Positions 5,144 to 51,199 of a stretch of DNA of 64,000 bases are shown in pieces. The notes below the pieces were generated by a model. The model was given only the letters and a program-made list of their open reading frames with translations, was not told the origin of the DNA and made no database searches. Within the stretch, counting starts at the first letter, position 1. Each line of letters begins with the position of its first letter. Made by a program: the position numbers and the translations under genes. The stretch comes from a virus: IMG/VR virus record IMGVR_UViG_3300010938_000006, positions 1 to 64,000 of that record; one strand, given 5' to 3'.

Positions 5144-5483
5144 GCTTTTGTCCTATAGATTTACGTGCAGACTTTCCACCAGTAGCCAAAACAAGTAAGT
5201 ATCCTATACGAAATTCGTTAATATCATAGGCATCGGTTCTAGAAGAACGAAATTTCTTCATATATGCTCGAATAGAGTAAATTCCATAAGCTCGTTCTAG
5301 TCTACATCCTAAAGACCGATGACCTCGTTTATCGCTACTTTTTAGATAAGTAATTACTTAGTTAACGGTTAACACTCAATTGTTTTTAACTGAGTTTTTT
5401 ACTCGTCTCTTAACTAAATTAGTATTCGTTGTATTAATAAACGTTACCAAATCTCGGTAGAGTTGTTCGCTTTTAGTAATCAT
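5136..5483 (-). pseudogene. 115-codon reading frame with two internal stops (TGA 5376-5378, TAA 5358-5360)
   Basis: ATG 5483 sits in an ATGA overlap with the upstream stop. The frame stays open to TAG 5136 apart from the two stops, which flank the palindrome GTTAACGGTTAAC. It could also be two mini-ORFs. Confidence 0.35.
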
Positions 5484-21716: not shown

Positions 21717-21792
21717 TGGTTGCAGGCCAAGGACTCGAACCTTGTATCTCCACGTTATGAGCGTGGCGAGATAACCCATTCTCCAGCCTGCT
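21717..21792 (-). tRNA. tRNA with CAT anticodon (Met, initiator-like, or Ile2)
   Basis: 76-nt cloverleaf folded by hand. D stem GAGA/TCTC, anticodon stem CCACG/CGTGG, loop CTCATAA, T arm CAAGG-TTCGAGT-CCTTG, encoded CCA. Has an A1-A72 mismatch and an A11:U24 pair. Confidence 0.85.
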
Positions 21793-28618: not shown

Positions 28619-29160
28619 GAACGATCTCCATATTGATATTCATAAATCTTTTTTATTTGCGCTAAAAATTCTTTTCTGCTTTGCTTATATTTAGCTAAAT
28701 TACAAAATTTACAACAGGTTACTACATTTTTTACAGAATATCCAAATTCATTCTTTACTTTATCAATACCATTATACACGCAATCTCCATTACGTTCAGA
28801 AACTTTTGTTAAAGGTGAGTTTTCACAATAATGACAATTATTTATTGTAAGTTCCTTAAAAACCTTTTTGGAAAGTCTAAAACTTATGTTTCTGTATTTT
28901 GCTTCTTTTTTATACCTTCCATATAAGGTATTAAAAGCAGATTGTCCAAAAGCTAAAGAATTTCTTTTTATGGACGATTCTATAGAATAGCAGCCACAAC
29001 TCTTACTTAATCCATTCACTAAGCAAGTGCCTCTAACTATTTTAGTTTTACCACAAATATACTTACAATGTCAAAAACTAATATTAGCTGTAATATTCGC
29101 TTTTGATAAAACTGTCCATCTACCAAATGTTTTGTTTAGTAAATTAAGAGGTTTGCACAT
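28615..29160 (-). pseudogene. HNH homing endonuclease with in-frame TGA (29071-29073) at a conserved Trp position
   Basis: ATG 29160. Reads MCKPLNLLNKTFGRWTVLSKANITANISF*HCKYICGKTKIV...SCGC...CHYCE...CCKFCNLAK. The track ORF (GTG 29019) covers only the C-terminal part. Confidence 0.75.
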
Positions 29161-38709: not shown

Positions 38710-39036
38710 TTATTTGTGGTTTGTGTACAGCTTGTCAATAACCTGATTAATACGTGACCTACCAACAGGATTAGAGCTAACGCAGTATATCCCATGGATA
38801 GGCAGGTATTCAGTATTTTCTTCAAGCCAACAAATGACATCATATCCAGTCTTTTCTTTGTCGCCCTCAAAAGACGCCAAATCGTGGTCCAGATACAAAA
38901 TGTCCCAAGGACCTTCTTCTTTTAAAAGTCTAATGCCTTCAAAATAATCTCTAGCTATCGTATGAGATTCATTCTCTTGTTGTTTGTGTACTTGTTCAAA
39001 GTTGCGAGCATCATCAATTAGTAGTATACGCTTTAT
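38710..39036 (-). pseudogene. receiver-like domain protein lacking a canonical start (ATA at 39034-39036)
   Basis: The frame reads (ATA)KRILLIDDARNF...WDILYLDHDLA...VSSNPVGRSRINQVI. There is no ATG/GTG/TTG before the TTG at 38898, which lies inside the domain. Confidence 0.55.
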
Positions 39037-39051
39037 ACTGCTAGTATAGCA

Positions 39052-39399
39052 TTATTTATATTCGCAAACAATAGGACCAGGCAAATATATGCAAGATTCT
39101 AAGTGTCCTTTATGTTTACAAACCTTAATCTTAGTCTCCTTGCACACTTTCTTAGGTGTCGGCTTAGACGTAGGAGTAGGCGGACAAGGTGTTGGAGTTG
39201 GAGGCACAGGCGTTGGGGTAGGAGCTACGCAACACAAAGGAGGCGTAGGTTTGGGCGTAGCAACAGGAGGAGTAGGACACGGTGTAGAAGACGGTGTAGG
39301 ATTAGAGTATACACTATTGTCTGAGCTACAATCTTCACAACGACCACAACCAAACAATCCCATCAAAATAATTACAAAAAATACATAAAACAGTTTCAT
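39052..39399 (-). CDS. Pro/Thr-rich lipoprotein
   Basis: Signal peptide with lipobox GLFGC, followed by PTPxP repeats and Cys pairs. Confidence 0.65.
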   Translation of the reverse strand: MKLFYVFFVIILMGLFGCGRCEDCSSDNSVYSNPTPSSTPCPTPPVATPKPTPPLCCVAPTPTPVPPTPTPCPPTPTSKPTPKKVCKETKIKVCKHKGHLESCIYLPGPIVCEYK

Positions 39400-41155: not shown

Positions 41156-41386
41156 ATAGCAATGGTCCTAGTTTACCTGCAGGCATAACTAGTTCTGATT
41201 TTGGATCAAATCTTTCTGCGCTCCACTCATAAACCTTTGGTTTCTTTGCATTAACAAACTTAACTTTATACTTAGCATATCCACTAGCAGTAAACAAGAC
41301 ACATTCAATAATAGCTTTAGACTTACCAAATTGCCCTTTGGTAAGAACAATATCGCCCGCATTAAATTTATAAGTTTTATTCTCCA
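41145..41386 (-). CDS. LLY-tail family small protein
   Basis: Start set to ATG 41386 (MENKTYKFNAGDIVL...). Ends LGPLLYGE. Confidence 0.55.
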
Positions 41387-41571
41387 TATAAATCTTCAAC
41401 CATTATACTCTCTCGTATTTTAAATGCAATACCATCTACCCAATTAACAAAAGCTGTTGCCTGATTATCTTGTTTATACAGCTTATGTATTTTAAATCAG
41501 TTTTTAAAAAATAGATTGTCAATTCAATAAACATTAGATACAATCCTCTCCGTCTTTGTGCCCCACATCAT
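41377..41571 (-). pseudogene. LLY-tail family ORF with two in-frame TGA (41524-41526, 41497-41499)
   Basis: MMWGTKTERIVSNVY*IDNLFFKN*FKIHKLYKQDNQATAFVNWVDGIAFKIRESIMVEDLYGE. The end embeds the next ATG. Confidence 0.5.
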
Positions 41572-41758
41572 ACCCATCACTATAGCCTTCATCGTATCCT
41601 AAAGTATATCCTTCTGAATGTATCTCGTCAAACAATTCACTTATCTGTGAATCATTTACATTGTAAAGTAATATAAGCTATGGATGTTTTTTTATTAGTT
41701 GTTCTAATTTAATATGTAAATTATCTGTTTGATTTACTTTAGAGTTTCTATCTCTTAT
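41534..41758 (-). pseudogene. small acidic ORF with ATA in place of ATG (41756-41758) and in-frame TAG (41678-41680)
   Basis: (ATA)RDRNSKVNQTDNLHIKLEQLIKKHP*LILLYNVNDSQISELFDEIHSEGYTLGYDEGYSDGYDVGHKDGEDCI. The junction CTATAAGAG would be a canonical CTATGAGAG (ATGA) overlap after a single A-to-G change. Confidence 0.45.
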
Positions 41759-42096
41759 AGGTATTCCCCTCTATCAGACTTCTTACAGTCCGTATTCATA
41801 ACGAAATACTTAGGTATAGTGAACATCAATACACCATCACCATCCCAATAATAACACATAAGAGTAACTGTTTCAAAATTCAAGTAGGTATTATCTTTAA
41901 TATCATCGTAGCTACAATCCATTAGCACGGCAGCACTGTGAATTAAATCATATCCATCAAGCGTGCTATCATCAATGCGCTTGTAGTCTCTATGAACAAG
42001 AAAGGTACTATAACAACCGTAATCGTCTTCTCTTAGCTTAACAAAAGCCTCATCTCTTAACTGTTCACCTAAAAAATTTGGACTAGTCTTACTCAT
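41755..42096 (-). CDS. hypothetical protein
   Basis: Start set to ATG 42096 (MSKTSPNFLGE...), embedded in the upstream TATGAGTAA. Confidence 0.5.
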   Translation of the reverse strand: MSKTSPNFLGEQLRDEAFVKLREDDYGCYSTFLVHRDYKRIDDSTLDGYDLIHSAAVLMDCSYDDIKDNTYLNFETVTLMCYYWDGDGVLMFTIPKYFVMNTDCKKSDRGEYL

Positions 42097-50438: not shown

Positions 50439-50798
50439 ATGGATTACCATATGCAACAAATAGCAGAATATATCTATATAGCCTTAAGCAGTAAATACTG
50501 CCATACTCCTTTACTTACTAGTGATCAACCTAAGCCTATATACTTATCTAAGCATAGATTCAAAGTAGCTATGAATAAATTAGTAGATAAGCCTGGATAT
50601 GAAATTATATTACAAATTGAAGTTCCTGATATACGAAAGTTCTATAATATCAAGTATATATTATCTAATATCTATGATATAGTATGCGTAGATTATACTA
50701 TTATTAAGACAGCTATATATTACTTTGAGAATGAACTAAAGAAGGTATTTGTAAGAGTACAAGATACTGAAATGACTAGAGTATTATATGAATTGTAA
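50439..50798 (+). CDS. LLY-tail family protein
   Basis: Ends MTRVLYEL. Confidence 0.5.
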   Translation: MDYHMQQIAEYIYIALSSKYCHTPLLTSDQPKPIYLSKHRFKVAMNKLVDKPGYEIILQIEVPDIRKFYNIKYILSNIYDIVCVDYTIIKTAIYYFENELKKVFVRVQDTEMTRVLYEL

Positions 50799-50818
50799 AG
50801 TAATGTAAAGAGTTGTAA

Positions 50819-50884
50819 ACCGTTCGAATCGAACGTGAGTTCGATGACGGGAACCTGGCGGCCTGCGGCGGGCTTCGCCTTTTC
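50819..50884 (+). terminator. GC-rich stem-loops after the 50439 gene
   Basis: CGTTCG-AAT-CGAACG hairpin, then GGCG-GGCTT-CGCC followed by TTTT. Confidence 0.4.
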
Positions 50885-50995
50885 GACTACCCTATTGACA
50901 CCATTTCGCTTTTCTGTTAAACTATAATAGTGAGCATAAAAATCTTTAATTACTCCGGCCTTATAGTTTCTAGCCCGTAATGGAACACATGGAGT

Positions 50996-51199
50996 ATAGA
51001 TAATTGTAGTTTTAAATTTGACCAACGAGTTGTAGTTACAGGTCAATATTTAAACGACCAAATAGTTCACGTTACTATTCATTGCCCTGAAACTGCTGCC
51101 CTTTCAGCTATGCAGATAGTCATGACTGAAGAACAACTTTATAAGATGGTATTACCTATAAATACTAATATTTCCAAGACTTTATATGCTTCCGAGTAA
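50996..51199 (+). pseudogene. LLY-tail family ORF without a canonical start (ATA at 50996)
   Basis: Frame is open from 50981: (ATA)DNCSFKFDQRVVVTGQYLNDQIVHVTIH...ISKTLYASE. No ATG/GTG/TTG until late in the frame. The end embeds the next ATG. Confidence 0.45.

Follow-up and report, generated by a model that had tools for sequence, protein, structure and literature searches.

ATA codons at the start positions of two small accessory genes in an uncultured phage probably arose from ATG by single G-to-A changes

Given that an ATA triplet occupies the place of an ATG at a stop-start overlap in the genome of an uncultured phage, we asked whether AUA serves there to initiate translation or whether the start codon was lost by a G-to-A change. 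The stretch analysed, hereafter the window, comprises the first 64 kb (positions 1-64000) of a 114,940-bp IMG/VR virus record. The record has direct terminal repeats and a GC content of approximately 35%, and it encodes a PolA-type DNA polymerase, a primase-helicase, a ligase, a large terminase and a major head protein; the minus strand carries the genes from 1 to 44 kb. The first-pass annotation had posed the same two alternatives for ATA codons at 41758, 39036 and 50996. Comparison with one close orthologue per site, made at the protein level, makes it likely that the small accessory genes with ATA at 41758 and 39036 once started with ATG, and that one G>A transition changed each start within the phage lineage. 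The cases are an ordinary kind of G-to-A knock-out and no new way to start translation.

At the reported site, the minus-strand junction reads ...GAA TAC CTA TAA GAG..., in which the ATA in start position (41756-41758, minus strand) overlaps the TAA stop (41755-41757) of an upstream 113-codon gene (41758-42096, minus strand) that gave no match in family searches. The resulting ATAA (41758-41755), which is what we read on the minus strand, had been described as one change away from ATGA, and the ATGA overlaps cited as the habit of this genome (1416, 10916, 12839, 27875, 28615 and 40288) were seen at all six junctions; our crude gene map contains twelve 4-nt overlaps genome-wide. In view of these overlaps elsewhere, the upstream gene probably ended in TGA until the G>A change. 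A Shine-Dalgarno-like GAGGGG precedes the ATA by 7 nt (41766-41771, minus strand), similar to the GGAG/GAGG motifs used by structural genes of the phage, and the retention of such a well-placed motif is a point against start loss.

The ORF that begins with this ATA spans 74 codons (41534-41758, minus strand, including its TAA stop at 41534-41536) and, as had been pointed out, also contains an in-frame TAG at 41678 (41676-41678). It specifies an acidic GY-repeat protein resembling phrog_4785 (E = 2e-5). A match to Yae1_N fell below the Pfam cut-off, and the nearest Atlas clusters are hypothetical proteins, two of them with recorded taxa, both viral, with all scores below the level at which they would count as more than leads. 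Among 5.8 billion proteins searched, a single relative was found, P0049, encoded on a 3,856-nt Logan contig; it is 74 aa long and aligns over its full length, ungapped, at 89% identity. In this alignment Met1 stands opposite the ATA and Trp27 opposite the TAG, which breaks the frame at codon 27. Since Trp is encoded by TGG alone, the TAG would have arisen by G>A (changed base 41677), and since ATA is one step from ATG only, the start would likewise have been lost by G>A (changed base 41756). From the orthologue proteins compared, we infer ATG as the ancestral start codon at both sites and TGA as the ancestral stop of the upstream gene. The GY gene thus carries two inactivating lesions, one in the start and one nonsense; with its start gone and a stop after 26 codons it is, as judged against its orthologue, a dead gene, a pseudogene produced by ATG>ATA and TGG>TAG. 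The comparison supports start loss at this site and leaves AUA initiation unneeded for the GY gene.

The GY pseudogene is followed directly, with an overlap at its 3′ end in a different frame, by an ORF with an LLY-type tail ending in DLYGE (41377-41580, minus strand), which has two in-frame TGA codons (41497 and 41524) and no usable start beyond them. The GY gene and this ORF together hold four lesions within approximately 360 bp (41400-41760).

Expression of the GY gene could nonetheless be imagined through recoding, with readthrough of the TAG and decoding of AUA as an initiator by a dedicated tRNA, for example a lysidine-modified, initiator-like tRNA(CAU). The phage and two relatives do carry a tRNA(CAU) in which position 1:72 is unpaired and which has G2:C71, C3:G70 and A73; however, this tRNA is common to relatives for which no ATA starts have been documented, and it is the sole tRNA of the phage, which therefore lacks a suppressor tRNA. 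Furthermore, 18 large ORFs and 21 small ones end in TAG, ATA occurs commonly as a sense codon (2.2% of the codons of large genes), and P0049 has plain Met and Trp at the two positions. On this evidence we regard the chance of recoding as close to negligible. Reassignment of a stop codon was likewise rejected: no alternative code improved the ORF structure, and ORFs of at least 100 aa terminate in TAA (71), TGA (22) and TAG (18), so that all three stops end large genes, which argues against recoding. As for the tRNA itself, the gene in the window (21717-21792, minus strand) has A/A at 1:72 and A11:U24, and its features are those expected of an initiator tRNA in bacteria, except that the three anticodon-stem G:C pairs are absent. 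Its counterparts in two related genomes (G002:34965-35039 and G012:18498-18572) have a U/U mismatch at 1:72. Given the frequency of ATA codons, a lysidine-modified tRNA-Ile2 is also a possible identity.

The second site is the start of a receiver-like gene of 108 codons plus stop (38710-39036, minus strand) whose first codon is ATA (39034-39036). The annotation had placed this ATA exactly where the N-terminal Met is expected, with no other start codon available, and both statements held: ATA at 39036-39034 is followed by KRILLIDDARNF, the stop-to-stop frame reads C-Y-T-S-S-I-K-R-I-L-L-I-D-D..., and between the upstream stop and a TTG 46 codons into the gene this frame contains no ATG, GTG or TTG. 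The product belongs to the cREC_REC family (PF20274), which it matches with 69.7 bits against a curated cut-off of 27 (E = 3.5e-19; profile positions 2-87 of 88, gene positions 38713-39036). PF20274 was present in all 46 database hits of the cREC query, and removal of the window's own fragment left 45 homologues. In the closest of these, P0001 (81% identity), which a 1,794-nt Logan contig encodes, MKRILLIDD sits on IKRILLIDD of the window, so that the ATA faces Met1 and the changed base is 39034. Met is the first residue in 45/45 homologues; 34 of them start one codon downstream of the ATA column and two in the same column. The fragment set aside, P0002, is the protein database's own gene call for this locus, a 62-aa piece with a TTG start.

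Comparison with orthologues had been proposed as a check, and at both testable sites it returned the Met that start loss predicts: in the aligned column P0049 and P0001 have Met, and so, as read from the proteins, neither conserves ATA as a start. The presence of ATA in the Met1 column at 41758 and at 39036 indicates that these are homologous start positions and not coincidental ATA codons. Accordingly, of the two alternatives offered for the three codons, loss by G-to-A change was upheld at 41758 by Met1 and Trp27 of P0049 and was also upheld at 39036, there with some room for leaky use of AUA; the codon at 50996 had been misread, as described below.

The cREC gene differs from the GY gene in that its body is fully intact: it keeps all 29 columns that are conserved in at least 90% of the other homologues, with no deviations, and is thus at most a very young pseudogene. 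A body without decay implies either that the start was lost recently or that the gene is a leaky knock-down with useful residual expression, and the absence of any decay except the ATA therefore weighs against start loss to the extent that it would also be expected if AUA gave useful expression. The competing proposal is that AUA is a working but attenuated start of an intact cREC_REC gene, used directly or by re-initiation after the in-frame TAA that closes the upstream gene 15 nt (5 codons) before the ATA, and kept for its low level. Initiation at AUA is real in other systems. AUA supports 1-2% of AUG-level expression in E. coli reporters (10.1101/063800), and in phage T4 an AUG>AUA change in rIIB cuts translation by approximately 85%, leaving approximately 15%, according to the account of Belin et al. 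1979 given in PMC5499595. Moreover, infC, ccpN and citZ of S. aureus have natural AUA starts that are conserved across strains, are supported by ribosome profiling and yield 10-30% of AUG levels with the aid of extended Shine-Dalgarno motifs (PMC13009471). In contrast, no Shine-Dalgarno motif was seen upstream of 39036, the ATA is private to this genome while the closest relative and all 45 homologues start with Met, and the identical change is present in the demonstrably dead GY gene of the same genome. We consider an attenuated AUA start unlikely on balance. Loss of the ATG start is indicated by the alignment and is the more parsimonious view, with a low probability that AUA initiation leaks from it; and it is similarly doubtful that the phage translates cREC_REC from AUA and keeps its level low on purpose, whether by re-initiation 15 nt past the in-frame stop or with the initiator-like tRNA(CAU).

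Immediately upstream of cREC, in the same frame and separated from it by the TAA and five codons, lies a lipoprotein-like gene (39055-39399, minus strand) with a signal peptide ending in Cys, followed by Pro/Thr-rich and Cys-rich repeats.

The A residues at 41756, 41677 and/or 39034 might instead be base-call or assembly errors, or minority alleles captured in the consensus of a population that carries ATG and TGG. Two facts suit this explanation: one metagenomic assembly underlies the record, and every change involves a single base. The distribution of the changes does not: two inactivating changes fall in one 74-codon gene and the large genes are all intact, a pattern that fits relaxed selection rather than random error. 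In addition, P0002 begins at TTG, the automated caller having found no ATG there either, although its contig is listed as 51,325 nt and possibly comes from the same assembly. We therefore hold error or a minority allele to be very unlikely, and the preferred explanation continues to be that the two ATG starts were lost in the phage lineage.

The third codon, ATA at 50996 (50996-50998, plus strand), had been presented as another start with no alternative, and this claim did not survive. A word-indexed search did not find a homologue of the ORF, and an exhaustive HMMER search did: P0051, of 88 aa with an LYG tail, is 39% identical over 64 aligned residues, and its N-terminus is 22 residues longer than the ORF counted from ATA 50996. 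When the window is read through an in-frame TAA (50978-50980), the alignment extends to 85 residues at 33% identity and places Met1 of P0051 on an in-frame GTG at 50930; this upstream extension adds little score, so that the N-terminal part is the weaker evidence. The 50996 ATA is probably not an N-terminus, and most likely represents an internal Ile, codon 23 of an LLY-tail family gene (50930-51199, plus strand; end TAA 51197-51199) with a probable GTG start. The lesion in this gene is the TAA, which probably breaks it downstream of the start. A GGAG motif is merely 1 nt from the ATA.

Ahead of this gene, a GC-rich island (50817-50925, plus strand) stands inside a region of 31% GC. Within it, a terminator-like hairpin with TTTT behind it follows the gene at 50439-50798; next come TTGACA, 17 nt and TAAACT just ahead of GTG 50930. 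An Rfam search of the island gave no match, and its folding energy was not significant.

Searches for wider relatives of the affected genes gave little beyond the orthologues described above. Peptide patterns for cREC and the upstream gene found no orthologues in IMG/VR, the 6-kb region had no megablast match among GenBank phages, and scanning JGI metagenomes with P0049 yielded distant GY-repeat matches only. We gathered 58 related loci via the major capsid protein. The GY protein was found in none of 21 kin records, and local tblastn of the cREC, GY, upstream and lipoprotein-like genes against eight kin records (five near-complete and three partial) and all loci produced self hits only; these four accessory genes are absent from those kin records.

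The kin records did allow lesions in other genes to be polarised. In the gene at 28645-29145 (minus strand), a TGA (29073-29071) lies opposite a Trp of a 210-aa Cys-rich, HNH-like protein of the relative G012. In a small gene at 5211-5444 (minus strand), TGA 5378 lies opposite an Arg and TAA 5360 opposite a Gln of a 116-aa ORF of the relative G002. These three hand-checked lesions (29073, 5378 and 5360), together with those at 41756, 41677 and 39034, are all compatible with GC>AT transitions. From the codon usage of 79 small genes, we calculated that ATG>ATA changes should account for approximately 13% of knock-outs with GC>AT transitions as their sole source, and for 2-6% under generic substitution models. 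A genome-wide lesion census, attempted by tblastn of kin ORFs and by codon log-odds, was abandoned, both versions being swamped by antisense-frame artefacts, and the three hand-checked lesions were retained. In the kin-ORF tblastn table, 68/68 recorded ATG codons lay opposite a relative's first residue; 22 ATA codons also did so, none of them at a credible conserved start, and we attribute these to spurious antisense ORFs or to positions internal to other genes. Hypermutation in this lineage was rejected as well, for want of support. Single-step amino-acid differences between the window and P0001 plus P0049 (38713-39036 and 41537-41758) comprise nine with A in the window and G in the relative against one in reverse, in a small, unpolarised sample, and the cREC outgroups suggest that several of these arose on the relative's branch.

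The course of events under start loss can be set out gene by gene. A G>A change at 41756 would have made ATAA of the ATGA stop-start overlap. In the upstream gene the effect would have been silent and without cost, TGA becoming TAA; in the downstream GY gene AUG would have become AUA, reducing initiation to a small fraction of the AUG level. A second G>A change, at 41677, would have converted Trp27 from TGG to TAG, such that any product would end after 26 residues. In cREC_REC the start change stands alone, and the gene may have been knocked out very recently or may be a leaky allele whose expression is strongly tuned down. In the gene around 50996, the in-frame TAA would follow the GTG start, and the ATA would be an ordinary isoleucine codon.

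The closest parallel is the T4 rIIB AUG>AUA mutant, which likewise carries a single G>A change in the start of a dispensable phage gene, and its strong but leaky drop in translation, as reported in the source that cites it, may resemble the outcome here. Unlike the rIIB mutation, the changes described here come from a metagenomic genome and were not selected in the laboratory; the one at 41758 lies on an ATGA overlap and also alters the upstream stop from TGA to TAA, and the GY gene adds a nonsense mutation. With infC, ccpN and citZ of S. aureus, the likeness concerns cREC only, in which AUA stands at the start position of an otherwise intact gene; unlike those starts, the ATA at 39036 is private to one genome and is without a Shine-Dalgarno motif. 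The situation also resembles that of pseudogenes in small phage accessory arrays, in which ORFan genes undergo birth and death: small, fast-evolving early genes are inactivated by point changes beside an intact core, and the lesions we could polarise agree with GC>AT transitions in a genome rich in AT. Unlike in such arrays, several lesions crowd into 360 bp (41400-41760).

The main value of these findings lies in annotation. We recommend labelling the 74-codon GY gene a pseudogene, annotating all 108 codons of cREC, mutated start included, in place of the 62-aa TTG fragment of automatic callers, and treating 50930-51199 as a gene that starts at GTG and is interrupted by a TAA. Nothing new would follow for translation initiation unless AUA-dependent expression of cREC were shown, in which case its translation would constitute a natural AUA start in a phage. 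For the biology of the phage, the GY and cREC genes add two polarised cases to the decay of its small accessory genes by GC>AT point mutation.
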